Of a stretch of DNA of 64,000 bases, positions 24,580 through 49,928 are shown piece by piece. The DNA comes from Candidatus Falkowbacteria bacterium RIFOXYC2_FULL_36_12 (GTDB taxonomy: Bacteria; Patescibacteriota; Patescibacteriia; UBA11705). Every line of letters begins with the position of its first letter. Within the stretch, counting starts at the first letter, position 1. The notes beneath the pieces were generated by a model. It searched no databases. It was not told the DNA's origin and saw only the letters and a list, made by a program, of their open reading frames with translations. The translations under genes and the position numbers were made by a program. The stretch covers positions 7,121 to 71,120 of the forward strand of contig MFGJ01000006.1 of the NCBI GenBank assembly GCA_001778235.1, read 5' to 3'.

Positions 24580-24596
24580 GCAGGCTCCTCCCTTTC

Positions 24597-31508: not shown

Positions 31509-34298
31509 ATGGCAGAAGAAAAAAAAGATAATAATGAAGAAAAGTCAGAATTGAACTATCTGGTTTGTGATTCGTGCAATGGAAAAGGTTTTCTGCAGAA
31601 TGAAAAGTGTCCTAAATGTGGTGGTATGGCAATTGCTGCTCCGTTTTATGGTCGGTTTTTGTATTGGGGTAAAAAAATAGATAATTTAAATATTGTTGTT
31701 GATAGAGCTATCGTTACCATTAACAAAGCAATAAATATTATTTTGGCGGTGATTGGGGTTTTTGGTTTATTTTTCTTGATCTATGTAGCTTATATCAATA
31801 ATTTTAACGAAATATTAACAATAAAATATTGGAATTCGCCATCATATGATAAATCGATTTTTTGGTTTACGATTTTGACTGATTTATATTTATATTATCG
31901 AATTTCAATGCAATCTGGTCCAAGTAAGCAGGTAGTCAGAAAAATATTTTTAAAGCAACCAGAATTACCAGAATTTGTTGATTGGTCATTTGTTCGTAGG
32001 CAATCCAGAAGCAAGTTGGTGGATATTTCTCTGGCTTTTGACAAAGAGTCAATTGAATTGATTGAAACAGCTTGGCAATTGGCTAGAGCTTTGAAACACG
32101 CTGAACTCAAGAGAATACACTTGTTTGCAATGCTTCCGAGTTTTAATGATGGAGCTGTGATATGGGGTCGGCTTGGCATAGATCCAGAGGTTTTCAAGGA
32201 AAAAATGGGTAGGGCGTTCCGTAAATATTCTGATGAAAAAGCCAATCATACTGACATAAGTCATGAAATTTATAAAATTTTAATGAAAGCTTATTTTGAA
32301 GCTTATAATGGTGGTCGGAAAAAAGTTAGTATAACTGAAATCATGTTTGCTTTGGTTGATGTTGATTTGCTTGAAGCGTCAGAAAAGCATGATGACTATA
32401 TTGAGAAAATATTAATTGATTTTGAAATTGATTACCAAAAAGTGATAAATGTTATTGAATGGATTAGACTTCAACGACAATTGCGTGAAGGGTTGCAGAG
32501 ATTTTCAGCCAAAGCACGATATAAACCAAAATCTGGCATGGACAGAGCGATGACTGCGATTGCGACTCCACTGCTCAATCAATTTAGTATTGATTTGACT
32601 TTGCAGGCCAGAAATGGACAGCTTTTTCCCTGTATTGGTCGAGAAAAAGAATTTGAGCAGATTTTTAGAATTATTGAAGGTAGCCGTGATGGAATATTGT
32701 TAACAGGTTTTTCTGGAGTTGGACGAACAACCATATTAAATGGTTTAGCCCAGAGAATGGCGGAAGAAACTGTACCTGATGTGATAAAAGATAAAAGGTT
32801 GGTTAGTATCAGTGTGGCTCATTTGATTAGTGGTGCAGCTCCAGCTGAAGCAGAAGAAAGATTATTAATGGTGGCGGATGAAGTGGTAAAATCAAAGAAT
32901 ATTATTTTAGTGATTGAAGATTTGCATAATTTAGTTGGTGCTGGCGCTGGCAGTGGTGGAACAAGTTTGGATTTGGGCGAAGTTTTTGCTGAAATGGTAA
33001 GAAAGCATTATTTTTATGCATTGGCAACAACTGATCCTGAAAATTTTACAGACCGGATTGAAAGGGGAAGTTTGGGGGAGGTATTTCAGCGAGTACAGGT
33101 CAATGAACTGGAGTTTAATGATGCGATCCAGGTAATTGAAGCTAAAAGTGGACCGATTGAGTACAAGAATAATGTTTTCTTTTCTTATGCTTCAATTGAA
33201 GCTTCAGTTGAGTTGTCAGCAAAATATATTCATGACAAATATTTACCAGAAAAAGCTCTTGATATATTGGAAGAAGTTGCTGTCAAAGTTAGAAAAGATA
33301 GAGGCGCAAGAGCTGTGGTTTCTCGTGAAGATGTGGCTGAAACGATTTCATCAAGTACAGGAATTAAAGTAACAAAAGTGTCTGAAGATGAAAGTCAAAA
33401 ATTATTAAATCTAGAAGATGAGCTTCACAAAAGAGTGATTGGTCAGGAAGAAGCGGTAAAAATGGTTTCTGCCAGCTTACGAAGATCAAGAGCAGAACTT
33501 CGTGATGAAAAACGACCGATTGTAAATTTATTGTTCCTTGGTCCAACTGGAGTGGGAAAAACCGAGTTGGCAAAAGCTGTGGCTGAATCATATTTTGGTC
33601 AGGAAGAGAATATTTTGCGTTTTGATATGAGTGAGTTTCAGGAAAAATCAGCAATTGATAAATTGATTGGGGGTAAAGATGAAGTTGGTGTTTTGACGGA
33701 GGCGGTTCGTAAAAATCCATTTAGTTTAGTTTTGTTTGATGAAGTTGAAAAGGCTCATCCTGATATTTTGAATTTATTTTTGCAGGTGATGGATGATGGT
33801 AGATTAACCGATGGACTTGGGAGGACAATTGATTTTACCAATGTTATTTTAATCATGACCAGCAATGCAGGTGCACAGAGAATCCAGGATGAAATTCAGG
33901 CTGAATTACCGATTGAACAAATAAAAGATCATTTGATAAATGAAGAATTGAAACAAGTGATGAGGCCAGAATTGATTAATCGTTTTGATGGTGTGATTGT
34001 ATTCAAACCGTTGACACAGCTTGAAGTCAATCAGATAGCTGGTTTGATGGCCAAGAAGATTGTCAAAAAATTAGCAGATAAAGAAATTTATCTTACTTTT
34101 ACAGACGAAGCAGTTCATGAATTGGCTGAAGCTGGTTTTGATCCAAAGTTTGGTGCTCGTCCATTGAGACGCGTGATGCAAGAGCGGGTAGATGATATGT
34201 TGGCTAATGCTTTGTTAAAAGGTGAGATAAATAGGCGAGACAAGGTGACTTTGATGCCTGGAGGTGAGTTGAAGGTTGAGAAGGCAGAGGAGATTTAA
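31509..34298 (+). CDS. Clp/Hsp100-family AAA+ ATPase with an N-terminal zinc ribbon and TM segment
   Basis: CDSCNGKG...CPKCGG zinc ribbon, a TM helix near residues 75-95, Clp_N-like repeats, a D1 with an atypical P-loop GFSGVGRTT, and a canonical D2 GPTGVGKTELAKA with sensor motifs. Confidence 0.8.
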   Translation: MAEEKKDNNEEKSELNYLVCDSCNGKGFLQNEKCPKCGGMAIAAPFYGRFLYWGKKIDNLNIVVDRAIVTINKAINIILAVIGVFGLFFLIYVAYINNFNEILTIKYWNSPSYDKSIFWFTILTDLYLYYRISMQSGPSKQVVRKIFLKQPELPEFVDWSFVRRQSRSKLVDISLAFDKESIELIETAWQLARALKHAELKRIHLFAMLPSFNDGAVIWGRLGIDPEVFKEKMGRAFRKYSDEKANHTDISHEIYKILMKAYFEAYNGGRKKVSITEIMFALVDVDLLEASEKHDDYIEKILIDFEIDYQKVINVIEWIRLQRQLREGLQRFSAKARYKPKSGMDRAMTAIATPLLNQFSIDLTLQARNGQLFPCIGREKEFEQIFRIIEGSRDGILLTGFSGVGRTTILNGLAQRMAEETVPDVIKDKRLVSISVAHLISGAAPAEAEERLLMVADEVVKSKNIILVIEDLHNLVGAGAGSGGTSLDLGEVFAEMVRKHYFYALATTDPENFTDRIERGSLGEVFQRVQVNELEFNDAIQVIEAKSGPIEYKNNVFFSYASIEASVELSAKYIHDKYLPEKALDILEEVAVKVRKDRGARAVVSREDVAETISSSTGIKVTKVSEDESQKLLNLEDELHKRVIGQEEAVKMVSASLRRSRAELRDEKRPIVNLLFLGPTGVGKTELAKAVAESYFGQEENILRFDMSEFQEKSAIDKLIGGKDEVGVLTEAVRKNPFSLVLFDEVEKAHPDILNLFLQVMDDGRLTDGLGRTIDFTNVILIMTSNAGAQRIQDEIQAELPIEQIKDHLINEELKQVMRPELINRFDGVIVFKPLTQLEVNQIAGLMAKKIVKKLADKEIYLTFTDEAVHELAEAGFDPKFGARPLRRVMQERVDDMLANALLKGEINRRDKVTLMPGGELKVEKAEEI

Positions 34299-34345: not shown

Positions 34346-34473
34346 TAAGTTAACTAGTTAATTAAGGAGTGATTAAAAATCGATTTATATTTAAAATAAC
34401 TTTCAGTTTTGAGGGTTATTTTTTTTTGAATGCCAGGGAAGACTACTTTGATACTTTGTCTGAACAGACAGGA

Positions 34474-34900
34474 GACTGTCACGTCATGTATTCTCATTCC
34501 TCACAGATTGTGTGGTTTAGTGTATCCAATCTTATGAATGTTGATAAACCAGTTGCGAATCTTTGCCAGAGACTGTCATGTTATGTATTCTCATTCCTCA
34601 CAGATTGTGTGGTTTAGTGTATTCAATCTTGTGAATGTTGATAAACCAGTTGCGAATCTTTGCCAGAGACTGTCACGTCATGTATTCTCATTCCTCACAG
34701 ATTGTGTGGTTTAGTGTATTCAATCTTGTGAATGTTGATAAACCAGTTGCGAATCCTTGCCAGAGACTGTCACGTCATGTATTCTCATTCCTCACAGATT
34801 GTGTGGTTTAGTGTATTCAATCTTGTGAATGTTGATAAACCAGTTGCGAATCTTTGCCAGAGACTGTCATGTCATGTATTCTCATTCCTCACTGGCTTGA
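34474..34900. repeat. 97-bp tandem direct repeat, 4.4 copies
   Basis: The unit GACTGTCACGTCATGTATTCTCATTCCTCACAGATTGTGTGGTTTAGTGTATTCAATCTTGTGAATGTTGATAAACCAGTTGCGAATCTTTGCCAGA starts at 34474, 34571, 34668, 34765 and 34862 (partial), with only a few point differences. Confidence 0.9.
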
Positions 34901-34984: not shown

Positions 34985-36103
34985 ATGACTGTGATAGATT
35001 ATATTTTTGCTTTGGTTTTGAGCTTTATTTTGGCAGGATTTCTGACACCGGCAGTTATTTGGTTTGCCAAGAAAATAAAAGTTTTGGATTATCCGAAAAA
35101 AGAAAGAAAAATTCACAAAAAACCAATACCGCTTCTTGGTGGCTTAGCAATTTTTTTGGCGATAAATATTAGTATAGTTATTTATTATTTTTTTAGTTCA
35201 AGCCTTGTTTATGACAATCTAGTGCCTAAATTTTTGTTAGGAATAATTATTGGTGGATTTTTTGTGATGATTGGTGGTTTTCTTGATGATAAGTTTGATT
35301 TGAATCCCAAATATCAAATTTTATTTCCGGTTGCTGCGATTTTGGCAGTAATTGTCAGCGGAGTTGGAATTGATCAAATGACAAATCCTTTTTCTGGAGG
35401 ATTGTTCCACCTTGATAAATATGTAACAATATTATTTTGGTTTAAGGGGTTGCCATACAAGTTTACACTGCTCGCAGATTTATTTACTTTGATTTGGATG
35501 TTACTGATGATGTATACGACAAAATTGCTTGATGGTCTAGATGGTTTGGTTTCAGGTGTGTCGGTGGTTGGAGGTTTGTTTATTTTTATAACAGCCTTGA
35601 TGAATGATACTGCTCAACCTGATGTAGCAATGCTGGCAATGATAATTATCGGTAGTTTTTTAGCTTTTTTGATTTTTAATTTTAATCCGGCAAAAATATT
35701 TCTTGGAGAAGGTGGTAGTTTGTATTCAGGCTTTATGCTTGGTGTATTGTCGATTATTTCCGGTAGCAAGGTGGCAGTAACTTTGATTGTTATGGGTATT
35801 CCTGTTCTGGATATGTTATGGACCATTATTAGGAGATTAATGGAAGGCAAAAATCCTCTTCGGACTGCTGATCGCAAACATTTGCATTTTCGATTACTTG
35901 ATGCAGGTTTATCAGTTCGACAATCAGTATTTATTTTGTATATTATTTCAATAATTTTCGGTCTAGCAGCCTTGTTTTTACAAAAAATCAGTTTAGGGTT
36001 GACTATTTTAGGGATGATGGTGATATTAACTTTTATTATTATGTCAGGATATTTGTATAAAATTAGGAAAGAAAAGGAAAAAGGTGCACTTGACATATCT
36101 TGA
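34985..36103 (+). CDS. glycosyltransferase family 4 (MraY/WecA-like phospho-sugar transferase)
   Basis: 10-11 TM helices with DDxxD (DDKFDL) and LLDGLDGL motifs. Confidence 0.8.
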   Translation: MTVIDYIFALVLSFILAGFLTPAVIWFAKKIKVLDYPKKERKIHKKPIPLLGGLAIFLAINISIVIYYFFSSSLVYDNLVPKFLLGIIIGGFFVMIGGFLDDKFDLNPKYQILFPVAAILAVIVSGVGIDQMTNPFSGGLFHLDKYVTILFWFKGLPYKFTLLADLFTLIWMLLMMYTTKLLDGLDGLVSGVSVVGGLFIFITALMNDTAQPDVAMLAMIIIGSFLAFLIFNFNPAKIFLGEGGSLYSGFMLGVLSIISGSKVAVTLIVMGIPVLDMLWTIIRRLMEGKNPLRTADRKHLHFRLLDAGLSVRQSVFILYIISIIFGLAALFLQKISLGLTILGMMVILTFIIMSGYLYKIRKEKEKGALDIS

Positions 36104-37966: not shown

Positions 37967-38191
37967 TTATTTTATAAATTTAAATCGAGGAATTAATTCA
38001 TTGTTTACTTCAACAAAATCCGCAAACATTTTTTTTGGTCTGACCCAGATGGCTTGATCGCCAAATTCAGTTGATGGATATAGTGCTTGATAGACAACTA
38101 ATTCTTCCAGAGTTTCTGAATTTTTGGCAAGGCCAATCACCTGATAGTGTTTTCCTTTGAAATGTTGATATTTACCGAGTTTTATATCCAT
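37967..38191 (-). CDS. DUF1653-family protein
   Basis: G.YQHFKG..Y.V...A.NSET.EELVVYQALY...W.RP..MF pattern. Confidence 0.5.
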   Translation of the reverse strand: MDIKLGKYQHFKGKHYQVIGLAKNSETLEELVVYQALYPSTEFGDQAIWVRPKKMFADFVEVNNELIPRFKFIK

Positions 38192-38258
38192 AGTTTTTTC
38201 ATTAATCTTGATTTGCTTCTAGCTACAGTGTTTTCTTCAATCCAGTGTATAAGCAATA

Positions 38259-40088
38259 CTAGTATAATTTCCAAGCTACTGGCAATGTCCCTGTAAAAGA
38301 ATAATCTCCAAACAAGACATCTGTCACTCCCTGTCCCTCGCTTCCTGGAAGCCAGGTCGCTATAACCCCGTCCCAATTTTTAGCATAGTCTTTTATATCC
38401 AATGGGCGTCCAGACACTATTATAACTACGATTTTTTTACTTTTTGCTTTTACTTTTTCTATTGCTAATAGATCTTCAGGACTTAAACTTGGATTAGCAT
38501 TATCTCCCCAACCTTCGGCATAAGGTTTTTCGCCAACAATTGCAATTCCAACATCTGCAAAATCATTTTTGATAGGAAAATCGCCATCTTTATTATATTC
38601 AATCTCCGTATTTTTGGAAACTGCATTTTTTATGGCTTCAAGTATGGTGGTTCCCGAAATACCCTCATTACCATCAATGCCTTGCCACTCCGTTGTCCAA
38701 CCTCCTGCTTGGCGACCTAAATTGTCGGCTGATGAACCAGCCACTATAATTTTTTTCAATGATTTAGATAGAGGTAAGACAAAGTTTGTATTTTTTAATA
38801 ATACTTGAGATTTACGAACTGCTTCCCTGCCTATCTCTCGATGCTGGTCACTACCTATAACCGATAATCCCTCTGGTAGAGCTTGGGGACGGTCAAATAG
38901 ACCTGTCTCAAATTTTACTGTTAAAATTCTTTTAACTGCATCGTCTATTCGTTCTTTTGTTATATCGCCATTAGATAAGGCTTTTTGTATATTAGATATA
39001 AAATCTTTGTATTCAAACGGAGTCATTACCATATCAATCCCGGCATTCACCGCTCTGACCAATGAATTGTATTTATCTGTTTCAATTTGATAAACACCAT
39101 ACCAATCGGAAACGATAAAACCAGAAAATTCCAATTCGTTTTTTATGACCTCTGTTAAAAGGTAATTATTATCAGAGTTTATTTTACCTTGCCAACTGGC
39201 AGTACTTACCATTATAACTCGCGCTCCAGAGGTGATGGCTTTTTGAAAAGGGACCAGGTGTGTTTGCCGTAATGTTTTTTCGTCAATAGTTATATTTCCT
39301 TCTTCTACTTTAAAATTATTATTGCGGGATGTGCCGTATTTCATATCTCCACCACCAATAAAGTGTTTGGGATTAGCCAAGACATTGAAGTAGTCATGTG
39401 ATGAATCTTGTAGCCCCTCTAAATAGGCGACTCCGAGTCGCGCTACATTGTTCGTGTTTGAGCCAAAAGTTTCGTAGGTTTTCCCCCAACGAATATCTTT
39501 TGCCACATCAAGATTCGGGGCAAAATTCCAATATATTCCGGTTGCAGCCATTTCTTCGGCAGTTGCTTTGGCAACCTGTTTGACTAATTCAGGATCTCTA
39601 GTAGCGCCCAAGCCAATGAAATGAGGGAAAATTGTAGCTTCAAGAACATTGCCATGACCATGGACAGCGTCAATCCCATACAAAAGTGGTATGCCTAAAC
39701 AAGTGTCTTTGGCGGCGGATTGGAAATCGTTTATCATTTGAAGCCATGCTAACGGAGTCTCTTGTTTTGGCCCGGCTCCGCCACCGCTTAAGAGTGCTCC
39801 TAAATTATATTGTGTAATATCCTTAAGATCATGGATACTGTTTTTTTCAATCAAAACCATTTGTCCAATTTTTTCCGCGTCGGTCATTCTGTTCATTAAA
39901 TCAGTAACTCTTTCGTCAATAGGTAATGTCTGATTTTGATATGGAAGATTTGTTTGGTGACAACGGATGTCTTTATTGGTGGCTGGTGAAAGTTGTATCT
40001 TGAGAAAAATAAAAACTAACATCGCGACTGAAAGCAGTGTTATAATAATAACTGTAATAAATCTTGAGTGATAAAAATTAGTATTCAT
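38259..40088 (-). CDS. glycoside hydrolase family 3 (BglX-like beta-glucosidase / beta-hexosaminidase), membrane-anchored
   Basis: N-terminal TM anchor, KHFIGGGD, a nucleophile region GFIVSDW, and a C-terminal GH3 domain. Confidence 0.85.
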   Translation of the reverse strand: MNTNFYHSRFITVIIITLLSVAMLVFIFLKIQLSPATNKDIRCHQTNLPYQNQTLPIDERVTDLMNRMTDAEKIGQMVLIEKNSIHDLKDITQYNLGALLSGGGAGPKQETPLAWLQMINDFQSAAKDTCLGIPLLYGIDAVHGHGNVLEATIFPHFIGLGATRDPELVKQVAKATAEEMAATGIYWNFAPNLDVAKDIRWGKTYETFGSNTNNVARLGVAYLEGLQDSSHDYFNVLANPKHFIGGGDMKYGTSRNNNFKVEEGNITIDEKTLRQTHLVPFQKAITSGARVIMVSTASWQGKINSDNNYLLTEVIKNELEFSGFIVSDWYGVYQIETDKYNSLVRAVNAGIDMVMTPFEYKDFISNIQKALSNGDITKERIDDAVKRILTVKFETGLFDRPQALPEGLSVIGSDQHREIGREAVRKSQVLLKNTNFVLPLSKSLKKIIVAGSSADNLGRQAGGWTTEWQGIDGNEGISGTTILEAIKNAVSKNTEIEYNKDGDFPIKNDFADVGIAIVGEKPYAEGWGDNANPSLSPEDLLAIEKVKAKSKKIVVIIVSGRPLDIKDYAKNWDGVIATWLPGSEGQGVTDVLFGDYSFTGTLPVAWKLY

Positions 40089-40249
40089 GGTAATTTATTA
40101 AGATTTTTTATGTCTTGAGTGGAAAAAAGCTCATTTCAGCTAAAAGATGTTTGCGATATATTGTCAGGTTTGCAACAGTCAAACATAAACAAAATATTAT
40201 TGTACTGGGGGTGGAAGTACATTTGTGTGCTGTTGACTGGTATTGGTGG

Positions 40250-40399
40250 TTACAATATTTTTTGACCTTTAATCAGTCTTACAAGCACTACGATAATAGC
40301 TACTACGAGTAGGATGTGGATGAAACCTCCGATTGTGTAGGAAGTAACTACTCCGAGTAGCCATAAAATGATGAGAATGACTGCGATAGTCCAAAGCAT
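40250..40399 (-). CDS. lmo0937-family small membrane protein (49 aa), not in the ORF track
   Basis: MLWTIAVILIILWLLGVVTSYTIGGFIHILLVVAIIVVLVRLIKGQKIL. Confidence 0.5.
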   Translation of the reverse strand: MLWTIAVILIILWLLGVVTSYTIGGFIHILLVVAIIVVLVRLIKGQKIL

Positions 40400-40590
40400 A
40401 TGGTATGTATTAGTGAATAAAATTTTGTTCTTTTAGAATAACTTATTTTGAGTGTAAACAAGATTGAAGTTAGTGCGTTAATTTGTCAATATCTCTTTAT
40501 TTAAGTATAGCACGAGAATTTAATATACTATAGTATAATTTGGTTAGAGAAAAATCTTGGAATCGGATGATTGTTGTTTTTGGATATTAT

Positions 40591-40617
40591 AAAAAACCTT
40601 TGGTCGAAAGGTTTTTT
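40591..40617. terminator. intrinsic terminator (palindromic, bidirectional)
   Basis: AAAAAACCTTT-GGTCG-AAAGGTTTTTT at the 3' end of the 507-aa gene. Confidence 0.6.
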
Positions 40618-42139
40618 ATTTATATGTTACAAGTACATCAACATTGATATTTTTAGGTGTGGCTGTTCCTCTGATGAAATCACCAGTGACAGTTTCTAAA
40701 TTTCCGTAGTTTGGTACTTTGCTATCATGGAAGTCTGCTGAACCGACTACCACCTTTAAATTTTTTGGAAAGTTAATCCATTTTTCCGTGCTGATTCTAG
40801 ACAAAACACCTATAAAAACGATAGTTTCATCAGTGATTTTATCATCTTCGGTTGCCACTTGGTTAATATTACAGCTATAAATTCTAGCGTAATCCTCTTT
40901 TTGGTTTCGTTTTTTTACTATTTCTTTTATTCTTGGGTCTTTTTTTCCGCTAAATCCTTCTATTTTATAATCGATTTCGTAAAGAAATTTTAGTTCACTT
41001 AATGTCAGCTTTTCATTTAGGCTGGATTTGGTTTCAATATCAGTTAATAATTGCATATCGTGTGATTTTTTTCTAAATTCATTGTAACCCGGTAATGGCC
41101 GAGCTTTCTCAATTGCAATTTCTAACAGGGAAGGCTCAATTTCTTGATCTGGGTCAACGCCTCGGATTTCTGCAATTCGACCATTTTCCATTCTAATAGC
41201 AATTCGAGGTATGGTATTTTTGCCCTTTTTGTCTCTTGTATGATAAACATAAAAATCTCCGAATTGTAGATGTTTCTTTGCTGTTTCTTGTCCAGCTGTA
41301 CACCACCCAGTTCCTTTTCCTTGCAGTGTTTTTACAAGTAATAAAGAATCAGAACCCTGATCGTATTTTACCCATTCTCCAGTTGTTTGTTCACGTTCTT
41401 CTTGGGATGAGGGTGTGACATGTTCAATTGAATATGCATAAAGTTCACCAAAATTCATTTTTTTTAAAATTTTCCACCATTCATCTTTTTCCCCTTTTGT
41501 ATCTTTATCATGAGGAGGTTCTACTTTTCCTTCTTCCGTCATGGCATGACTTACCTCATCATAGACATAAGCCAATGCCTCATAGTCTATGTCGGGAAAA
41601 ACGGCTACGGTGTGGGTGGTGCGTTTTTTGAAACTTTTATCTTTCTTATTATACGGACAAAGATTTAAAACATTCCGAATAACATAGTATCTGAACCAAG
41701 TTGGATATTTTGCGTCGTTTTGTAACACTAAATAGTCAATCCAGGTATCAAGACTGTGTTGTTGTTCAGCAATAATATCTTGAGCCATCAAATAGCGAAG
41801 TTTTTCTGTGATTTCAACATTTCCGTACCCTTGCTGTTTAAGGATTTCTTTTTGATGCTCATAATATCTATCTGGGATATCAGCTTCTTTGATTGTAAAA
41901 AGTTCATACAAATTTTGTTTAAGGCGTTGAGTTCTCGCTTCTAATTTAATTCGATCTGTAATATCAAAAATTTTTTCAAGACGATCTAAAAATAATTGTA
42001 TTTTTTTATTTTTATCTGTTTGACTAGGGAGTTCTGCTTTTCCTCTCTTTTTCCAATCATCAACCGCTTTTGTTACTTCTTTTGAAGCGTGTAAGTCGTT
42101 GTATTTTTTATTTAAGAATTGAGATCCAGGTTCATGCAT
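40616..42139 (-). CDS. hypothetical protein (507 aa)
   Basis: Long ORF with no recognisable motifs. It shares its upstream element with the SET-domain gene. Confidence 0.5.
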   Translation of the reverse strand: MHEPGSQFLNKKYNDLHASKEVTKAVDDWKKRGKAELPSQTDKNKKIQLFLDRLEKIFDITDRIKLEARTQRLKQNLYELFTIKEADIPDRYYEHQKEILKQQGYGNVEITEKLRYLMAQDIIAEQQHSLDTWIDYLVLQNDAKYPTWFRYYVIRNVLNLCPYNKKDKSFKKRTTHTVAVFPDIDYEALAYVYDEVSHAMTEEGKVEPPHDKDTKGEKDEWWKILKKMNFGELYAYSIEHVTPSSQEEREQTTGEWVKYDQGSDSLLLVKTLQGKGTGWCTAGQETAKKHLQFGDFYVYHTRDKKGKNTIPRIAIRMENGRIAEIRGVDPDQEIEPSLLEIAIEKARPLPGYNEFRKKSHDMQLLTDIETKSSLNEKLTLSELKFLYEIDYKIEGFSGKKDPRIKEIVKKRNQKEDYARIYSCNINQVATEDDKITDETIVFIGVLSRISTEKWINFPKNLKVVVGSADFHDSKVPNYGNLETVTGDFIRGTATPKNINVDVLVTYK

Positions 42140-42198
42140 AGTGTTGAAAAGTAAGATTTTTTATTAATCGGGTGTTAATTTGAAAAATAAAAGGAATG

Positions 42199-42272
42199 TT
42201 TTAGCTAATGTTTCGGCATAGACGATGTTTGCCAAAATTCCTTAAAAATCAATTGGTTTTGGCAAATTTGGG
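42199..42272 (-). promoter_or_regulatory. duplicated upstream element, copy 1: 10-bp inverted repeat TTTGCCAAAA-N19-TTTTGGCAAA
   Basis: The roughly 72-bp segment is about 90% identical to 43316-43390. Both copies sit just 5' of minus-strand genes. Confidence 0.6.
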
Positions 42273-42400
42273 TGAAGAAATTTTGCATTACTTGGTTTTA
42301 TTAAAGTGTAAAATTTTTGAATCAGATACGCCGTGTTATCGGATGTAAATTTTTTATTCATATTTCCCTACATAGAGTTGATCCGATAAAAACTAAAAGA

Positions 42401-42766
42401 TTAATGGGGGTTTGCAATTTCACCAATAACCATAAAGATCCAAAAGGCTAAGACTAAAACAGCTAAGAAAATTCCAGTCCATACAGCCCATGATTTATTA
42501 CCTTGCCTCAAAGTATTTACACCTTTAGTAATCGCAAAAATAGAAATTATCGAAGAAAGTAGAAAAGACGCAAAACCAGCTTCTCCTAAAATAGTTCTAG
42601 ATGGATTAACGCTTTCAGGATCAAAGATTTGACGAGTAATTGAGGTAAAAAATCCTAATATTGGAACAATTAAAACTGCACAAAAGCTAAGCAGTAATAC
42701 CAACCAAGATTTTACCGGGACTTTTTTATCTTTTAGTTTATTGAAGTTTATTTCGACATGTTTCAT
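42401..42766 (-). CDS. hypothetical membrane protein
   Basis: 121 aa with 3-4 TM helices. Confidence 0.4.
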   Translation of the reverse strand: MKHVEINFNKLKDKKVPVKSWLVLLLSFCAVLIVPILGFFTSITRQIFDPESVNPSRTILGEAGFASFLLSSIISIFAITKGVNTLRQGNKSWAVWTGIFLAVLVLAFWIFMVIGEIANPH

Positions 42767-42784
42767 ATATAAAGAATTTATCCA

Positions 42785-43300
42785 TTACACTCCATTATTC
42801 AATTTTTGGATTCGCTTGTTGAGGAGAGGTGAAAAATGTTCTTTATAGCGGTTTTGCAAATCAGACTTTTTCCAGTCGATCCCTGTGACCCGACCACGGC
42901 ACAAGGGCGAACCACATTTGCACTCCCATTTTGAAATATAATTTTCATCAGCTTCAAATAACGCATAATCAACAGTCAGTTCTTCGCCCGATTTAATATC
43001 TCTACTCGTGATTAAAGTATAAGCGTCTGACATCCATATATTAGGGTCACAGGAATGGTTGATGAAATATCCATCGTCATCAGCTCTATCTTCGTAGCTA
43101 TAAAGATCGTCGTCCCATTGCATAACCAACATACCATTTTTTCTCATTAATTCTGCGCCAACTGTATCAGTATAATTTCCTCCCCAGACGACGATTTTTT
43201 CGCCTCGGTTAATGTCAGAGTTAGCAAACAAGCCCTTTCCTTCAACTGGACTGGCATGAATATCAACCTTTGGACTTTTCCAATCTTGTTTAACGCTCAT
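42785..43300 (-). CDS. SET-domain protein (putative protein-lysine methyltransferase)
   Basis: GKGLFA (GxG), NHSCDPN, ELTVDY, and the post-SET Cys cluster CKCGSPLC. Start at 43300 or 43369. I do not regard the 43369 start as coding, because its N-terminal extension would be encoded by the duplicated element. Confidence 0.75.
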   Translation of the reverse strand: MSVKQDWKSPKVDIHASPVEGKGLFANSDINRGEKIVVWGGNYTDTVGAELMRKNGMLVMQWDDDLYSYEDRADDDGYFINHSCDPNIWMSDAYTLITSRDIKSGEELTVDYALFEADENYISKWECKCGSPLCRGRVTGIDWKKSDLQNRYKEHFSPLLNKRIQKLNNGV

Positions 43301-43315
43301 AGGGAATTTTTTAAT

Positions 43316-43390
43316 TTCAGCTAATGTATCGGCATATACGATGTTTGCCAAAATTCCTTTAAAAATCAATTAGTTTTGGTAATTTATTCA
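43316..43390 (-). promoter_or_regulatory. duplicated upstream element, copy 2
   Basis: Near-identical to 42199-42272. TTTGCCAAAA-N19-TTTTGGTAA. Confidence 0.6.
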
Positions 43391-43498
43391 TTGATAGGAT
43401 AACCAAGGTCGGCTAATAGTGCTTTGAAATCACCATCCTTCCATCCTTTGTAATATTCTTCGCGGACTCCTTTGAAATATTGGTATTTGCCGAGTTGT

Positions 43499-43732
43499 TT
43501 ATCCATAGTTTAATCCTTTTATTTCCGGAGTAATTTTAAGGACATAGATGATCATGATAACAATGAAAGCAACAACTATAAGGCCGAGGATTTTCAATGA
43601 TTTTTTGAAGTTGGTGAAATCTTTTTTACTGATTGAGATAATACCAAGAACTGCGGTGACAATTATCATAATGATTGCACCAAATACTGCAATCATTCCC
43701 AAAACAGTTAAAATACTGATTAATATTGACAT
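43499..43732 (-). CDS. small membrane protein
   Basis: 77 aa with 3 TM helices. Confidence 0.35.
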   Translation of the reverse strand: MSILISILTVLGMIAVFGAIIMIIVTAVLGIISISKKDFTNFKKSLKILGLIVVAFIVIMIIYVLKITPEIKGLNYG

Positions 43733-43757
43733 AGGTTTGTTATTGTATGTGCAAATT

Positions 43758-45314
43758 TTATTTTTTTAATTCTTCTCTGATTTGTTTTATTTTTTTAACA
43801 TCCTCTATTGTCCGCTGAACTTTTTCTGTTTTTCCTTTTATTTCTTTTACGATTAAATCAAAAAAATTTTGGTAACCCGCAAGGTTTTCTTGTGTTTGTA
43901 GGTCATATCCCGCGATATCTTTAATATCTTGAAAATTTTCTGCGGTTTCTAAAAATAAAGCCAAATTTTTTTTTGCTTTCGGGGTTAAATTGGTGATTAT
44001 ACTATTCACATAGGTTTTCACAATGGATACTTCAGGTGTTTCGTTCCCGCCCTGCCTCAACGCCTCTATTACTGGTTTAATATGGGAGCCGACTAATAAA
44101 ATTTGTCTGTATAGTGCGAGTTCTTTTTCTTTAGTCCATTCTTTTTTTCTTGCTTCATCACTGCCAACCCACGCTGGTCGATTTTTTTCGTCATTTAAGT
44201 AATCCTCGTTCAGTTGGTATGATCCATCAAAATCGCATATTTCAGCAGCTAAAGTAATATCTTGCTTATGGTTATTCATCGCTCCCTGATTAATTCTATT
44301 TTCCAGCAAAATAGCTGTTTGCCGTCCCAATAATTTACTGAATGTTTTTAGAAAATTTTCATTACTCATGTCTTCTCCGAACTCTTTGGCAAGAATGAGT
44401 CTAGATGCATCTAAAATTGAGGAAACCTTTTCTATCCTTTTCTCCTGATCTTTTTCTTTCATAGCTTCTTCCAATTCGCTAACTCTCCAGACATTTCTAA
44501 ATGCTCTTACATTTTGACCCAATATTGCCGACTTATAGTCTTGAACTTCGTATGAACCTACCATTTTTTTGTAGAGTTCAGGGTCGTTAATTCTTTCTTT
44601 GTTTGCTTCTATGTGCTGAACGGGGTTTTGCCCAGCAATATCTTCTGGGTCGTCATTATCAGGTATTGGCAAATTATTATCAATACAGAATTGGCGAGAA
44701 AATTTTATAGTGGTTAGAATTTTTGGCATTCTTAAACCGTATTGCTCCATCAATTTTGACTGTTTCTCTTCTAATAGTAAATCTTCATGATAAGCGGCTC
44801 CCATAAATCTAACCAATAATTTTTCATCAACTTCTGCCACAAACAGTGGCATGGCATTTTCTTTGCCCAAAGGAAATAACATTGTTCCGCCTTTGGCTTC
44901 AATTTTTTTCTGCCCTTGTTCGTTAACGCGATTTTCTCCTACACCTTTCCATTGCACAAAATTATAATCAGTGTTCCCGATTCGTGTTTGATGTTCAATA
45001 CACGCGGCTTTGCCCATGGCAACGGTCGATTTTACGGCTATAGCGGACATGTTCATATCTCCCGCCATATTTTTGCCTTGTTCTCCAACAAACATTGGTC
45101 GCAAGTAAGTTCGTGAAATCTGTGGCACTTCATTTGTTTGAGAAAAACCATTATCAGGAATCAAAAAGCCGGTGTCTTCGAAGACTAGGCCTTCTGCAGG
45201 TGACAACTCAATTTTTTCCCTTGGTTTTTTGATTTCCACTGCTTCTTGTGGTCGTTTGAGGGTAGCGACTTGTTCGTGATCGGGATTTGGTCCAAATTCG
45301 CTCATAAATATCAC
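43758..45314 (-). CDS. hypothetical protein (518 aa)
   Basis: Long ORF with no recognisable motifs. It is preceded by GC-rich element copy A. Confidence 0.5.
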   Translation of the reverse strand: MIFMSEFGPNPDHEQVATLKRPQEAVEIKKPREKIELSPAEGLVFEDTGFLIPDNGFSQTNEVPQISRTYLRPMFVGEQGKNMAGDMNMSAIAVKSTVAMGKAACIEHQTRIGNTDYNFVQWKGVGENRVNEQGQKKIEAKGGTMLFPLGKENAMPLFVAEVDEKLLVRFMGAAYHEDLLLEEKQSKLMEQYGLRMPKILTTIKFSRQFCIDNNLPIPDNDDPEDIAGQNPVQHIEANKERINDPELYKKMVGSYEVQDYKSAILGQNVRAFRNVWRVSELEEAMKEKDQEKRIEKVSSILDASRLILAKEFGEDMSNENFLKTFSKLLGRQTAILLENRINQGAMNNHKQDITLAAEICDFDGSYQLNEDYLNDEKNRPAWVGSDEARKKEWTKEKELALYRQILLVGSHIKPVIEALRQGGNETPEVSIVKTYVNSIITNLTPKAKKNLALFLETAENFQDIKDIAGYDLQTQENLAGYQNFFDLIVKEIKGKTEKVQRTIEDVKKIKQIREELKK

Positions 45315-45377
45315 AATTAAAAAATAAAATTTGCCTGAATAATTTTTGCTCCGCAGAGCAAAAGAGTTTATTTATTT

Positions 45378-45557
45378 CAGCTAATGGGCTGCGCCTAATG
45401 CGAAGTTGCGGACGGGTAGCGGAGCTACCCGACGGGCAATGTCGCATAGGCGCTGTTGTGCGATGCCATAGCGAGCACACAGCGCCGGAGGCGCAGCCCA
45501 TTGTGCAAAACAACGGGAGCGACACGCGGAGCGTGTGCGAGCGGTTTTGCACAACGT
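45378..45557. repeat. GC-rich structured element, copy A (the GC-rich region extends to about 45700)
   Basis: The GC content is far above the flanks. Long-range complementary pairs are visible: TGGGCTGCGCC/GGCGCAGCCCA, TTGTGCAAAAC/GTTTTGCACAA, CGGGTAGC/GCTACCCG, ACACGC-GGA-GCGTGT. A near-identical copy sits at 48316-48515. Confidence 0.7.
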
Positions 45558-45810
45558 TTCAGTATATGCGATGTTTTGCGTAGTGAAACGGAGCAAAATA
45601 TGGGAGAGCGAAGTGCAACGAGCGAACTGCATATACTGTGTTAGGCGAGCCGAACGAAGCGATAGCGGAGTGAGAGTGCAACGTGCCTTGCGTATTTTTG
45701 AAAAATTTATCCATATTATTCCGTTTTTGGTGGGCTTTTTATTGTATTTGATTTTTTTGTTTTGAAAAATGGAAGAGGGGCTGGGGGTGAATTCCATTTT
45801 TCAAAACTCC

Positions 45811-46707
45811 TTATTTTAATATCTTTTTAAATATTTCTTCTACTTTTAAATCAATATTTTCAACTTTTTTTGAATGAGGAATACATAGTTTTGTTAATAT
45901 CTCTTCAAACTTCATATATCCATTTTTTGATCTTAATTCTACCCAATTTACTTTTAACATTTCAGCTTGTTTTTTATTCAAATCTGATAGCTTGTCTGCT
46001 ACAAATATATTACTTTCTCTTGCAAATATTGCATCAGCACTTTCAGGGTTTCCTTTTCCCATTAACTTGACTTCACATCTATAATAATTCTCATTATTGA
46101 TGATGAAAAAATCCACCTCTCTCATACTTTCAGGAACTCTGCTTTGATCAAAATGAATGAATGGAACATCGAATAAATGACAAAGTGTAGCCATCAAAAA
46201 CTTTTCAACTCTTTTTCCGGCAGTACTCCATAAACCACCTCTTAAAGCGGCTCTTTTAACAGCGAGTGTATTTATCACAATCAAGCTTTCATTCATATTT
46301 AGATCCACACTTACGCCTTTTAGTTTAATTGTAAGTGTTAAATCAATATCTGGCTGACTATCTACTAGACTACTAATAGAGTCATACAAAACATCATAGT
46401 GCTCGTTTGATGCATCAATAACTATTTCTTTTGATGCAGAATTGTACATATTTGTAATTGTTTTTTTATTCAATCCTGAGTTAATTGCGATATCTGTTGA
46501 ACTTAAATTTGAATTTAAGAATGTTTTTTTATACCAATCAACCGTTAAATCTTTATTTGATAATTTTGCTTCGATAACTTGTTTAAAAAAGTCTATTGCA
46601 AACTGTAAAAATTCAGCATTAATAAGTGCAACTACTTCAATTCTATAGTCCTTTCCATTTATTAATCTTTTAATTATATTTTTAATTACTTGATCTGTTA
46701 ATGTCAT
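45811..46707 (-). CDS. putative Type II restriction endonuclease (PD-(D/E)xK-like)
   Basis: 4-bp overlap with the upstream methyltransferase. EVDFF...CEVKLMGKG is a candidate D...ExK motif. Confidence 0.45.
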   Translation of the reverse strand: MTLTDQVIKNIIKRLINGKDYRIEVVALINAEFLQFAIDFFKQVIEAKLSNKDLTVDWYKKTFLNSNLSSTDIAINSGLNKKTITNMYNSASKEIVIDASNEHYDVLYDSISSLVDSQPDIDLTLTIKLKGVSVDLNMNESLIVINTLAVKRAALRGGLWSTAGKRVEKFLMATLCHLFDVPFIHFDQSRVPESMREVDFFIINNENYYRCEVKLMGKGNPESADAIFARESNIFVADKLSDLNKKQAEMLKVNWVELRSKNGYMKFEEILTKLCIPHSKKVENIDLKVEEIFKKILK

Positions 46708-48116
46708 ATTGTATTACTTAAAGAAATAAAAGTATTTAAATCAACAAAATTAACTTGTTGTTTCTGTAAATCAAATAAATCGCTATTTTTTAATAGATCC
46801 TGTTTCATTCTGTCTATGTATTTATCTTCTTTTTCGGTTAAGAAGAAATTCCTTTTTAATTTTAATGCAGATTTACCAAGTGTGCCACTCCCTGCAAAAG
46901 GATCAAAGACCAAATCATTAATGAATGAATAGTATTTTATAACTCTATCACATAATTCAATTGGGAATACCGCACTATGTACTTTGTCAAAGGTAGGATC
47001 AATTTGCCATACATTTGTAGTTTCATATTTTTCTTCGACTTTACTATTTTTTACTTTTTCCCAACTATACTGCTTCATGTTCCAATCAATAAGTTTATCT
47101 GTTTTTTTTCTATATACCATTAAACATTCCGTAATCGCATTTGGTTTATATCCAAGAGGTTTTCTATGTTGAAGAAAACCACCATTTCTATTTTTTACAC
47201 TAGCTTCAGGTTTTACCCATACAATATCATCAATAAATTCCCATCCCATTTTTATAAGCAATGGATGTATGTCATAAGGAATTGGATACCTTTTACTTGA
47301 ATGAGCACGACTAATTCTTGGAACTATTACTGGAGATGTATTTAGAATAAAAAATCTTCCCTCCTTTGTTATTCTGTGGACTTCCTTAAATACTTCTTCT
47401 AGAAAATTTAAATATTCTTCATAGCTTTGATATATTGAATAGTCTCTTGCATTATAGTATGGGGGAGATGTAAAGGTTAAATGTATTGATTCGTTTGGTA
47501 CATATTTCATTGTTTCTTGAACATCTGCACCAACAACTGTGTTTTGCATATAAATCGGGGATTCATCGTGTTTCTGCGATGATTTAGAGCTATATTTACT
47601 ACCATTTAATTCTTTACTAATAACTTCTTGAATTACTTCATTTGGATGATTTATTAGCTTTTTAAGTTCATCTTTTATTTCTTTTTTACTTGAAAAAACC
47701 AACAATCCTCTAATTGCTTGCATTACAACTTTAGGATCATTGTCTTTTAAAAAATTGCAGAGTGTCGGGATTATCTCTGGCTTTCTCAAACGCCCAATAG
47801 CTGATACAGATTCTCTTCTAACATCCGTGCTTTCATCTTTACTTGCATGTTTTACAAAAATATCAAGTAATTTTATATCACCAATTTTAGCCAAGTTTTT
47901 AATAGAGAGCGAACGTATTTTTTCATTAGGATTTTCTAATAAATTCAACAAAGGATTACGGCTGTTGTCATTATCTAATTTTCCAAGTTTTTCCAAAGTA
48001 TAAATTATAGTTCCATCATTCTGATTTTCTAAAAAAGATAATAATACATTTGTATCATTTTTTAATTCATCTATTGTTTTTTTATCAATTTTTTTCCCCA
48101 AAGTTGCTCTATTCAT
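46704..48116 (-). CDS. DNA methyltransferase (beta-class N4-C/N6-A; SPPY then FxGxG) with N-terminal HEAT-like repeats
   Basis: Motif IV TSPPYYNARDY lies upstream of motif I VFDPFAGSGTLGK. Residues about 40-170 carry 4 tandem PBS-lyase/HEAT-like repeats (D..VR..A..A.G.L). Confidence 0.8.
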   Translation of the reverse strand: MNRATLGKKIDKKTIDELKNDTNVLLSFLENQNDGTIIYTLEKLGKLDNDNSRNPLLNLLENPNEKIRSLSIKNLAKIGDIKLLDIFVKHASKDESTDVRRESVSAIGRLRKPEIIPTLCNFLKDNDPKVVMQAIRGLLVFSSKKEIKDELKKLINHPNEVIQEVISKELNGSKYSSKSSQKHDESPIYMQNTVVGADVQETMKYVPNESIHLTFTSPPYYNARDYSIYQSYEEYLNFLEEVFKEVHRITKEGRFFILNTSPVIVPRISRAHSSKRYPIPYDIHPLLIKMGWEFIDDIVWVKPEASVKNRNGGFLQHRKPLGYKPNAITECLMVYRKKTDKLIDWNMKQYSWEKVKNSKVEEKYETTNVWQIDPTFDKVHSAVFPIELCDRVIKYYSFINDLVFDPFAGSGTLGKSALKLKRNFFLTEKEDKYIDRMKQDLLKNSDLFDLQKQQVNFVDLNTFISLSNTI

Positions 48117-48315
48117 AATTATTTTCCTAATTTAGTAAAATCTTTTGTATTATATAAGTATTTTTCTTCTTTAATCAATTTATAATAAATCGTTTTCGGA
48201 ACGATAGTGGAGAAAACACCTTTTACCCCCCTCTTTAAAAATTAAAAAAATCAAATTCCTTATTTCTTAAAGCCCACCAAAAACATTTCAATTAACAAAT
48301 TTTTCAAAAATATGT

Positions 48316-48515
48316 CGCCTAATGGGCTGCGCCTAATGCGAAGTTGCGGACGGGTAGCGGAGCTATCCGACAGGCAATTTCGTATAGGCGCTGTTGTGCG
48401 CTTGTCCGCCTGAGGCGGGATGCCATGCGAGCACACAGCGCCGGAGGCGCAGCCCATTGTGCAAAACAACGGGAGCGACACGCGGAGCGTGTGCGAGCGG
48501 TTTTGCACAACGTTC
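48316..48515. repeat. GC-rich structured element, copy B (the GC-rich region runs about 48300-48650)
   Basis: Direct repeat of copy A with a 19-bp hairpin insertion (CCGCCTGAGGCGG). Confidence 0.7.
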
Positions 48516-48718
48516 ACCGATATCAGATGTGTCGCCGTTGTTTCTGCGCTCAAATTTTGGGTTATCACATTACTTGCTCCTTGCTGTGAACATTCACATT
48601 ACGAAGCGGCATATGGGAGAAGAAAATTGCGACACCTTTGAAATTATTAAGAGCAATTTTCTGAACCTGATATCGGTTGTTAGCTGATGTAATTAAAATT
48701 TTCTCCCCCCCATATCAT

Positions 48719-49171
48719 TTATGGATTTACAGTGAATTTTTTGTTAGCGATATCATACATAAATATTTTTTTGTCGATACTAAATAAAACTTTCCCCTCA
48801 TTTTGATTTGAAAGTAGCTCAAATTCAGGATCTTTATTTTCTGATGAAATGGGCAATGAAGCTTTAGACTTTTTTGATACCAGTGTGCCTGTGTGTGGTG
48901 AAGCAGAATCATCCCAAACCATTTCAAGGTAAAAAAGTTCTTCATTGCCTTGACACACATGTCTAATTGTTGGCGCGTGATTCATTCCATTAAAAAATTC
49001 TGATGAAATCCACAACTCGTTGTTAGTGGGCTTTACTTCGTCGCACCAGGTAATGACCTTGGTCTGTATATTTTCTGATTGTTTATCTGTAGTCTGAGTG
49101 TTCCTTGTTGAAGTACAACCAGCGCCAACAATTACAAAAAAGATGATGGGGACAAAAAAATATTTAAGCAT
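48719..49171 (-). CDS. hypothetical lipoprotein
   Basis: Signal peptide plus lipobox (VGAGC). Confidence 0.45.
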   Translation of the reverse strand: MLKYFFVPIIFFVIVGAGCTSTRNTQTTDKQSENIQTKVITWCDEVKPTNNELWISSEFFNGMNHAPTIRHVCQGNEELFYLEMVWDDSASPHTGTLVSKKSKASLPISSENKDPEFELLSNQNEGKVLFSIDKKIFMYDIANKKFTVNP

Positions 49172-49334
49172 AGATTTGAGTAAAAAAATTTTAATTATTT
49201 TAGCTAACTCCTTTTATGCGAAGTTTGTATTCTAGGTATTTAATATCCGCTATAATAAGTGAATAAAAGGAGTATGAATTGCTTAAAATAGTAATTTATA
49301 AGTATATTATGATTATAGCAAAAATAATGGAAAA

Positions 49335-49928
49335 TTAAACCTCCCGTCTATTGGATAGGGCGTTGGAAAGAGTAACTTCATCTGCATATTCGAGGTCAGA
49401 GCCCATTGGCAGACCACGGGCAAGGCGGGTGATTTTTATTTTATTTGGTGAAAGATGTTTTTTCAAAAATATAATTGTAGCTTCCCCTTGCATGTCAGGA
49501 TTGAGGGCTAAAATTACTTCTAGTATATTATTTTTTTCAATTTTTGGTATAAGTGTTTTAATATTTAAGTCATTTTCTGTGAAATCTTCAAGTGGATTTA
49601 ATACTCCGCCGAGAACATGATAAAGTCCATGATATTCATGGGTTTCTTCAATCACATTGAGATCATGTTGTTCGGCAACAATACAAAGCTGGGTTCGGTC
49701 GCGGTTTGAATTATTGCAGATTGGGCAAAGGCCGTTGTCGGAAAAATTAAAACATTCTGTGCAGAGTTTGAGTGATTGCAGTTCTTTTAGGTGCTGGGCA
49801 AATAGTTCTAAATCATTTTGTTGTTTTTTTAATAAACTAAAAACTAAGCGTTCGGCGGTTTTTCGGCCAATGCCAGGGAGTTTGGAAAAATCTTCAATTA
49901 GATTTTGGATTTTGTCGGGAAAGCGCAT
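49335..49928 (-). CDS. recR: recombination protein RecR
   Basis: HhH (LPGIGRKTAERL), a C4 zinc finger (CTECFNFSDNGLCPIC) and a Toprim domain. Confidence 0.9.
   Translation of the reverse strand: MRFPDKIQNLIEDFSKLPGIGRKTAERLVFSLLKKQQNDLELFAQHLKELQSLKLCTECFNFSDNGLCPICNNSNRDRTQLCIVAEQHDLNVIEETHEYHGLYHVLGGVLNPLEDFTENDLNIKTLIPKIEKNNILEVILALNPDMQGEATIIFLKKHLSPNKIKITRLARGLPMGSDLEYADEVTLSNALSNRREV

Follow-up and report, generated by a model that had tools for sequence, protein, structure and literature searches.

A minus-strand block in a 64,000-nt window of Candidatus Falkowbacteria bacterium RIFOXYC2_FULL_36_12 (contig MFGJ01000006.1; the window is the whole stretch analysed, and coordinates without a locus label refer to it) is in all likelihood part of a chromosomal integron-like array of gene cassettes in Candidatus Falkowbacteria (Patescibacteria, or candidate phyla radiation, CPR); the mechanistic details of the array are proposed with less confidence. 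The reading is carried by the anatomy of the sites between cassettes, the complementarity of cassette ends, the covariation of site arms, the adjacency of such arrays to a tyrosine recombinase gene and a precise one-cassette insertion polymorphism. The array is likened to an integron and not filed as one because the additional domain of the integron integrase IntI is absent from the recombinase. The original prediction, made from the sequence of the window, had placed an accessory island at 40616–48700; its genes and both of its repeat classes were all found where it put them, and the true unit is larger, extending up to a relic array head (49225–49206, with 49309–49322) and possibly down to about 40130. 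The AT-rich window (GC about 34%) shows strong asymmetry between its strands, and the cassettes are ordered on the minus strand from 49225 to about 42200.

Site anatomy was read from the inter-cassette DNA of an array adjoining the recombinase gene (L144, L148; L-numbers are labels of the related loci and contigs compared) and from the window. All cassettes start directly after (G/A)TT with a start of the form NNNN(G/A)A(A/C)A(T/C), continue with one to three genes or none, and close with a 70–190-nt imperfect palindrome that itself ends in (G/A)TT. The order within a site is R'' ending in AAC (e.g. GCCTAAC), 1–2 bases, the L'' arm, a variable loop, AAC(A/T)TC, an L' arm able to pair with L'' (their stem having a conserved ATAT core), a 3–5-nt spacer and (G/A)TT. 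When folded as single-stranded DNA, most sites form one end-to-end structure with an R stem of 6–9 bp, an asymmetric internal loop (1 x 3–5 nt), an L stem of 8–11 bp and a variable tip, with folding z as low as −4.95.

A cassette start complementary to the R'' at its own far end, rather than to that of the neighbouring site, is expected if circular cassettes are cut at a fixed point of a hairpin site. Among 20 cassettes of five species, 14 began with a variable tetranucleotide that was at every base the reverse complement of R'' in the same cassette, against 8% of non-cognate pairs, and the observed mean was reached in 0 of 20000 permutations; in Moranbacteria the agreement was 9/9 in five successive non-training cassettes. 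The L boxes covaried: the best 10-nt complementarity, taken over 19 unique sites, was 8.47/10 for cognate and 6.18/10 for non-cognate arms (0/10000 permutations), with compensatory families such as CAGTATATGC/GCATATACTG and AGGGATATACG/CGTATATCCCT, and a single extrahelical G in one family. When half-site profiles were run over the 64-kb window, matches were confined to 42.2–48.7 kb and lay on the minus strand throughout. The window is accordingly mapped as follows (^ marks a cassette boundary; ORF, open reading frame; R-M, restriction-modification).

49206–49322, minus strand: relic of an array head, which over about 100 nt is homologous to what lies upstream of the recombinase gene in sister contigs, with a head site AACTTCGCATAAAAGGAGTT^ at 49225–49206 and the first 14 nt of the recombinase gene kept (ATGATTATAGCAAA, plus strand, 49309–49322).
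48509–49205, minus strand: cassette 1, start AGCTAAAAT, with a 150-aa ORF (48719–49171) that has a lipoprotein-type signal (..VGAGC).
48690–48509, minus strand: site 1, attC-like, R'' ACATCAGCTAAC, L'' CCGATATCAG, L' CTGATATCGG, then GTT^.
48321–48508, minus strand: GC element B, putative ORF-less cassette, 188 nt, GC 0.62, start GTGCAAAAC, end GGCGCAGCCCATT^.
45553–48320, minus strand: R-M cassette, start AGGCGACAT, with a 204-nt leader (48320–48117) and a trailer hairpin (45801–45765) 3' of the endonuclease gene.
45651–45553, minus strand: site 2, R'' GGCTCGCCTAAC, L'' CAGTATATGC, L' GCATATACTG, GTT^.
45383–45552, minus strand: GC element A, putative ORF-less cassette, 170 nt, GC 0.63.
43323–45382, minus strand: 515-aa cassette, start AGCTGAAAT, with ORFs of 515 aa (43758–45305), 77 aa (membrane protein, 43499–43732) and 40 aa (43384–43506).
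43382–43344 (tip palindrome) and 43343–43323 (L'..ATT^), minus strand: site 3, including copy 2 of a 71-nt repeat.
42207–43322, minus strand: SET cassette, start AGCTGAAAT, with the SET gene (42785–43300/43369) and a 121-aa membrane ORF (42401–42766).
42346–42207, minus strand: site 4, R'' ACATCCGATAAC, tip palindrome TTTGCCAAAA..TTTTGGCAAA (42266–42228), L'..ATT^, including copy 1 of the 71-nt repeat.
40543–42206, minus strand: 507-aa cassette, start AGCTAAAAC, with the 507-aa gene (40616–42139) and a terminator-like hairpin.
40133–40399, minus strand: candidate decayed array end (uncertain), with a 49-aa membrane ORF (40250–40399).

At the candidate decayed end, AACATCTTTT^AGCTGAAAT (40151–40133) precedes a GH3 glycosidase gene (38259–40088), and between 40.5 and 40.1 kb the array may come to a gradual end. 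At the other end the recombinase gene is absent from the relic head, which RecR (49335–49928) adjoins; sigma-70-like matches at the window head (49333–49306, 49222–49194) were weak and not enriched over shuffles, and a promoter and terminator scan gave no enrichment against shuffles.

Sister contigs from Rifle aquifer Falkowbacteria (GCA_001780315.1 and many metagenome contigs) match the window at about 99.9% identity but differ from it in structure. The 515-aa block is joined straight to a 282-aa recombinase gene in L003/L143, an AAA_33 kinase gene and a truncated GC element lie upstream of the R-M pair in L001, and in L148 the R-M pair stands further along an array that begins at the recombinase gene. 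On this comparison with close relatives the block is accessory, the upstream neighbour being one of at least three for the R-M pair and one of two for the 515-aa block; the earlier suggestion of modular, acquired, non-housekeeping cargo agrees with content that differs among near-identical genomes.

In six Patescibacteria species, between which recombinase identity is 50–100%, arrays were found to adjoin the recombinase gene on its upstream side and to run divergently from it, and the array started about 85–110 nt upstream of that gene in 6/6 species with at least 3 kb of upstream sequence. For a test in independent genomes, profiles were trained solely on the window species and L015; paired half-site matches were obtained in a second Falkowbacteria species (L153–L157), in Moranbacteria GW2011_GWE2_35_2-, and in two more species (L161, L163), on the upstream side of the recombinase gene, on a single strand and between genes. 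Moranbacteria had seven sites in the 8 kb upstream of the recombinase gene and none in the 8 kb downstream. No half-site matches were found in three control loci with distant XerA-like genes, taken from a genome-collection scan with the recombinase protein that retrieved only distant archaeal and Lachnospiraceae relatives. A metagenome scan with the 16-mer TCGCATAAAAGGAGTT, a pattern too short for the purpose, returned mostly chance matches, those in L073 and L123 being real; neither the GC element nor the head site was found in viral contigs.

A cassette insertion was seen at nucleotide resolution in the second Falkowbacteria species (species 2). Contig L153 reads ..AAGGAGTT^ATATGAAAT (NUDIX cassette), and L155 and L157 read ..AAGGAGTT^AGGCGACAT, a 3-kb R-M cassette and then ..GAAACGTT^ATATGAAAT, so that the difference is exactly one R-M cassette at the recombinase-proximal site, recombinase and far flank being identical. 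Assembly chimerism is unlikely in this case because no long repeat is involved. Contigs L153 and L154 are identical over 4.43 kb and diverge straight after the GTT^ATAT of a site.

The recombinase (282–286 aa; e.g. OGF30335.1) is an XerA/'Cand'-type tyrosine recombinase with matches to PF00589 and PF13495, and its homologues in Patescibacteria number in thousands. The catalytic motifs GSGLRLSE, KGNKDR, HSLRHSFATH, LGH and IYTH are present and align with IntI4 and XerA. The XerA equivalog model NF040815 was passed (228.5, cut-off 220). The best solved match was the integron integrase VchIntIA (2a3v, E 7e-45), to which the phmmer alignment splits in two exactly at the specific extra domain of IntI, and Pyrococcus abyssi XerA (4a8e) aligned end to end (149.6 bits). 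Xer-related 'Cand' recombinases of candidate phyla have been described as presumed Xer replacements (Smyshlyaev et al. 2021, PMC8138268); they are very probably the same protein family, and no associated sites or cassette arrays were described there, in contrast to the present loci. A second, inverted copy of the core of the head site (AACTCC(C/T)TTTATGC) is found in Falkowbacteria at 35 nt from that site (L003 6496–6560; upstream in L013, L015 and L073). The recombinase gene probably has its Shine-Dalgarno sequence within this copy, and the gene may begin at an upstream TTG and so encode 292 aa. Since the inverted core contains the likely Shine-Dalgarno sequence, a head-bound recombinase could autoregulate its own translation.

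From these data we infer a mechanism in which cassettes would exist as circles, each with a single site cut at the fixed point (G/A)^TT (here ^ marks the cut), and the cut circle would be joined to a site in the array, leaving a start complementary to its own distal R''. The enzyme would be the 282-aa recombinase, which is linked to the sites by its position, and it would act on the bottom strand of folded single-stranded sites. On this model circle junctions would read, for example, ..CATCGCATATACTGAAACGTT^AGGCGACATATTTTTG for the R-M circle, and GGCGCAGCCCATT^GTGCAAAACCGC. In the window, recombination would need to be supplied in trans, because its head is a relic without the recombinase gene; an intact locus on contig MFGP01000019 of the same assembly would be the source. 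The choice of the bottom strand is hinted at by the four substitutions that distinguish GC type A from type B; they give unpaired bases or G.T wobbles on the bottom strand and A.C mismatches on the top strand.

Several points weigh against the cassette-array reading or parts of it. Of those four substitutions just two are informative for the folding strand, and 2/9 sites were not folded end to end in the minimum-free-energy structure. A loose scanner for R''..stem..R' at 8/10 pairs performed no better than shuffles; it was superseded by the half-site profiles and permutation tests. Site 3 has a degenerate, undetectable 5' half, the R''-like box of the 507-aa cassette is weak (9/11; TTTTCTCTAAC, 40553–40543) and the half-site profiles gave no clear 3' site half for that cassette. 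The window array has no adjacent intact recombinase gene, and the assembled loci were searched for a circle or tandem junction of the R-M cassette, of which none was found. The L003 and L148 junctions fall within the 170–188-nt GC repeats and could be assembly chimeras or products of homologous rather than site-specific recombination; the L001 junction and those of L018/L073, in which the R-M leader of the window stands at the head site in another species, are unexplained by GC repeats. The recombinase scored 227.7 with the integron-integrase model TIGR02249 (cut-off 265) and 148 with PRK15417 (435), it lacks the IntI-specific domain (residues 180–244 of IntI4, 65 in number, correspond to 22 residues here), and it may primarily be a chromosome-dimer resolvase.

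This last point leads to the best-surviving alternative, in which the recombinase is a dimer resolvase, the gene-adjacent site is its dif site, and the cassettes are hitch-hikers of the type of integrative mobile elements exploiting Xer (IMEX) that carry double-stranded dif-like sites. Tandem accumulation at dif is familiar from CTX/TLC in Vibrio and from pdif modules in Acinetobacter plasmids, and the XerS and XerH genes adjoin their own dif sites, as would the gene here. The XerA equivalog cut-off and the placement of such proteins as Xer-related (PMC8138268) fit this explanation, as does the Falkowbacteria head site, TTCGCATAA-AAGGAG-TTAGCTGAA, which can be read as a 9-6-9 imperfect palindrome resembling E. 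coli dif. The sites of the array are, however, split palindromes of 70–190 nt and not 28–31-bp sites of 11-6-11 design, the junction halves (L', spacer, R' and start) are not mutual inverted repeats, and the complementarity between a start and its own distal R'' is unpredicted by IMEX or pdif models. Sites are numerous in each genome, the head site is not kept in Moranbacteria and other species, and the relic head of the window is not at a GC-skew inflection. We therefore regard this explanation as unlikely, while the recombinase may have a dual role in dimer resolution and cassette capture. A first model with double-stranded 11-6-11 Xer/dif sites (AACTTCGCATAA-AAGGAG-TTAGCTAAAAT) was dropped in view of the varying arm spacing (6, 9 and 11 nt) and the hairpin organization. 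The known Xer/dif systems (XerA, XerS/difSL, XerH/difH; IMEX/pdif) thus share with the array the recombinase family, a gene-adjacent site and the accumulation of foreign DNA, and differ from it in having neither long split palindromes, end complementarity, many sites per genome nor one-directional arrays.

That the system is a canonical integron, with a true IntI and true attC sites simply never sought in CPR genomes, is less probable still, close as the likeness is. In both, a recombinase gene at the head is divergent from one-directional, mostly single-gene accessory cassettes; the site, an imperfect palindrome, combines R''/R' and L''/L' with a spacer that is unpaired, extrahelical bases in some cases and a tip that varies; crossover takes place at (G/A)^TT, each cassette has a start complementary to its own R'', and insertion is seen at the site next to the recombinase gene. 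ORF-less cassettes and arrays without an integrase occur in both, the window resembling a CALIN (attC sites clustered with no integron integrase). VchIntIA is the best solved match, and the integron consensus is followed by some boxes, RYYYAAC by R'' boxes like GCCTAAC and GTTRRRY by several R' boxes (GTTAGGC). Against a true integron, many R boxes are off consensus (e.g. CACATAAC and GTACAAC, and, for GTTRRRY, GTTGTGC, GTTATGT and ATTAGCT), the recombinase is scored as XerA by NCBIfam and falls below the integron-integrase cut-off, and the domain that defines IntI is absent. In integrons this domain contacts the extrahelical bases of attC. The AAC(A/T)TC..ATAT L' motif and the NNNNGAAAT starts are to our knowledge foreign to described attC sites; the present sites, unlike those of integrons, also reach 190 nt (800 nt with a loop ORF), the Falkowbacteria head site is itself palindromic, and the hosts are Patescibacteria. 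Archaeal integrons (Ghaly et al. 2022, PMC9668308) were likewise found in lineages known only from metagenome-assembled genomes, with contigs breaking at repeated sites, and their IntIs retain the additional domain that is missing here and use canonical attC sites. The loop ORF lies in Moranbacteria L158 (7331–6525), where about 800 nt with an opposite-strand 158-aa ORF separate L'' and L' of one site, being either an insertion into the site loop or a cassette inside the hairpin tip.

Two classes of repeat had been noted as duplicated in front of different genes and taken for operator-like or structured regulatory elements that co-regulate an acquired island. Both are duplicated, the GC-rich pair at 45373–45579 and 48311–48535 (92% identical) and the 71-nt pair at 42199–42269 and 43315–43385 (80% identical ungapped, 90% with one gap); the GC-rich pair, however, does not stand in front of different genes but flanks the R-M pair as direct repeats, and co-regulation was not borne out, the repeats being best read as recombination sites and an ORF-less cassette. 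The exact limits of the GC element are 45552–45383 (170 nt) and 48508–48321 (188 nt), one of its 40-mers is present twice in the window against an expectation of 0, and copy B has an extra 19-nt hairpin (48419–48401) at a hairpin tip. In 7/7 copies the limits were exact, identity running from TT^GTGCAAAAC to GGCGCAGCCCATT^ (CCCATT^) with five different cassettes downstream. Element A is 100% identical to sister-contig copies beside the recombinase gene and after a 145-aa cassette, and multiplication of the GC elements has led to at least five copies in each genome. The internal GTTTTGCACAATGGGCTGCGCC is the exact reverse complement of the element's own 3' end joined to its own 5' start, and for this reason the element is read as an ORF-less cassette that appears to consist of a 32-nt hairpin cargo and an oversized site; L161, from another species, has an ORF-less mini-cassette of the same design and different sequence. 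The 71-nt repeat is read as the distal two-thirds of an attC-like site, its copies being the tip palindrome and L'/R' part of two related sites; its tip palindrome recurs inside a Candidatus Moranbacteria site.

Under the regulatory explanation the GC element would encode a non-coding RNA or act as a riboregulator, and the 71-nt palindrome would serve a repressor as operator, in a co-regulated defence island. The GC element is indeed highly stable as RNA on both strands (folding z = −8.7 on the plus and −9.9 on the minus strand against dinucleotide shuffles, 0/200 shuffles being as stable), its two copies are distinguished by a hairpin-tip insertion, the four A/B substitutions preserve pairing on the plus strand (G.U wobbles), and the inner palindrome of the 71-nt repeat is kept as far as Moranbacteria. 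Nothing relevant was found in Rfam, however, either in the whole window at gathering thresholds or at 45250–48750 with E <= 10, and within-type copies are 100% identical and so show no covariation. The limits of the GC element are exactly those of cassettes and its ends follow the end-complementarity rule, the 71-nt repeat sits in a larger site with differing outer parts, and the elements lie as often 3' as 5' of genes. This explanation is therefore considered highly improbable, and a secondary role as transcription insulator or terminator, or as antisense RNA, may exist.

Least credible of all is that the GC elements resemble repetitive extragenic palindromes (REP) or miniature inverted-repeat transposable elements (MITE) moved by another enzyme (an IS200/IS605-type Y1 transposase or a REP-associated tyrosine transposase, RAYT), the rearrangements resulting from homologous recombination or chimeric assembly: the copies are numerous, identical, GC-rich within an AT-rich genome and invariably preceded by (G/A)TT, a Y1-transposase-like ORF lies near the species 2 recombinase gene (L156, L073) and the L003 and L148 junctions are inside repeats, but the window species has no Y1 transposase in the window or beside its arrays, ORF cassettes without a GC element obey the same boundaries and rules, the analogous mini-cassette of L161 has another sequence, the species 2 R-M insertion is precise and repeat-free, and no GC element was seen off a cassette boundary in the 64-kb window or elsewhere. 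The Y1 ORF itself (IS200/RAYT-like, 143 aa, ..HVHVIV..; L073 4620–5051, L156 5510–5941) is found in the second Falkowbacteria species; it lies a few kb away from the recombinase gene, on the conserved side of that gene, and other contigs have a 190-aa ORF in its place.

Cassette arrays of this kind are apparently widespread in Patescibacteria. On balance, and with modest confidence, we favour the view that the group as a whole has an unrecognized cassette platform in which a minimal 'Cand' recombinase, lacking the integron-integrase domain and possibly also the dimer resolvase, captures and shuffles hairpin-bounded cassettes, as an ancestor-like integron or an independent reinvention, and that this is a main route of gene flow. 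If so, restriction-modification systems, NUDIX proteins, methyltransferases, transporters and unknown proteins would be carried among tiny genomes. The genomes of CPR bacteria are very small and are regarded as containing few classical mobile elements; were the platform widespread, it would account for strain-level variation in their defence and surface functions. According to the current view, integrons arose when an Xer-like recombinase gained an extra domain for reading folded attC hairpins, and an array run by an Xer-like enzyme without that domain would bear on integron origin and on the minimal requirements of hairpin-site recombination. For annotation, 'Cand' recombinases would be more than 'XerD', and the platform would offer a handle for discovering unknown accessory genes such as the 507-aa and 515-aa families. 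No report of integrons, attC sites or gene cassettes in Patescibacteria/CPR was found in the literature searched, which cannot prove the system unpublished; IntegronFinder 2.0 and the archaeal integron study (PMC9668308) did not cover these bacteria. In many assemblies (L013, L014, L018, L019, L150–L152 and others) contigs stop about 100–260 nt upstream of the recombinase gene, a systematic break that is consistent with repeated or polymorphic sequence and for which the platform would account.

The cargo was compared with the earlier suggestion of a defence or counter-defence island. A CfrBI-like restriction enzyme (45811–46707, minus strand; PF09516, E 7e-24; PADLOC REase_II PDLC03496, 5e-101) and an adjacent N4/N6 methyltransferase (46704–48116, minus strand; PF01555, 1e-39; PADLOC MTase_II PDLC03246, 3e-86) are predicted to form a bona fide type II R-M system; in the PADLOC scan every other protein of the block was unmatched, so that a defence component is present and the label of defence island overstates it. 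About 170 aa at the N terminus of the methyltransferase form a HEAT-repeat region (PF13646, E 9e-18); this is unusual in a type II methylase and sets the system apart from known type II systems, as does the packing of the gene pair as one cassette. R-M cassettes of three species have a common leader of about 200 nt (..TTTAAAGAGGGGGGTAAAAGGTGTTTTCTCC..TTATATAAT..) and a common trailer hairpin with the loop CACCCC(C/T)(A/G)(G/A)CCCCTC, their site being partly common (leader and trailer at 48320–48117 and 45801–45765 in the window, 945–1134 in L073, about 9340–9145 and about 5968–5900 in L153, and about 4950–4730 and 2306–2255 in L158). The enzymes so framed differ, being the CfrBI-like type II pair, a type IIG-like enzyme with an S subunit and a fused methylase-S protein, and the shared frame looks like a reusable expression 'chassis' for R-M genes.

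The SET-domain ORF (42785–43369, minus strand; PF00856, E 5e-14, 53 bits against a gathering threshold of 22.4) probably has its true start at the ATG at 43300. The 518-aa ORF (43758–45314, minus strand), of 515 aa when counted from ATG, was without match in Pfam and NCBIfam, and its GTG-start version had no exact-protein match; its 26 relatives in the database are exclusively from Patescibacteria. Structure prediction, which had been proposed for the two large proteins, was informative for this one: its AlphaFold2 model (mean predicted local distance difference test, pLDDT, 88) was matched by Foldseek to YdiU/SelO (E 2e-5 to 8e-4, probability 1.0, with template-modelling scores of just 0.33–0.40), which suggests a protein-kinase-like fold nearest to SelO/YdiU AMPylases/UMPylases. 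The 507-aa protein was unmatched in Pfam, NCBIfam and PADLOC and had no significant structural match in PDB; its family comprises more than 1400 proteins, from Patescibacteria only, with an invariant GxGTGWCTAG motif and no Pfam domain. The 40-aa ORF of the 515-aa cassette is a duplicated N-terminal fragment of a DUF1653 gene 5 kb away and outside the clear array (43468–43518 and 38153–38203, 51 nt, 84% identical).

Two further features of the window lie away from the array. Between the ClpB-like (31509–34298) and MraY-like (34985–36103) genes there is a 97-nt tandem repeat of 4.3 copies with 97% identity (34472–34892), which has no Rfam match and varies in copy number among otherwise identical contigs. 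At 22547–27450 a four-gene minus-strand block has a raised GC content of 0.38–0.41 and a GC skew near zero, within surroundings that are plus-strand and strongly skewed.

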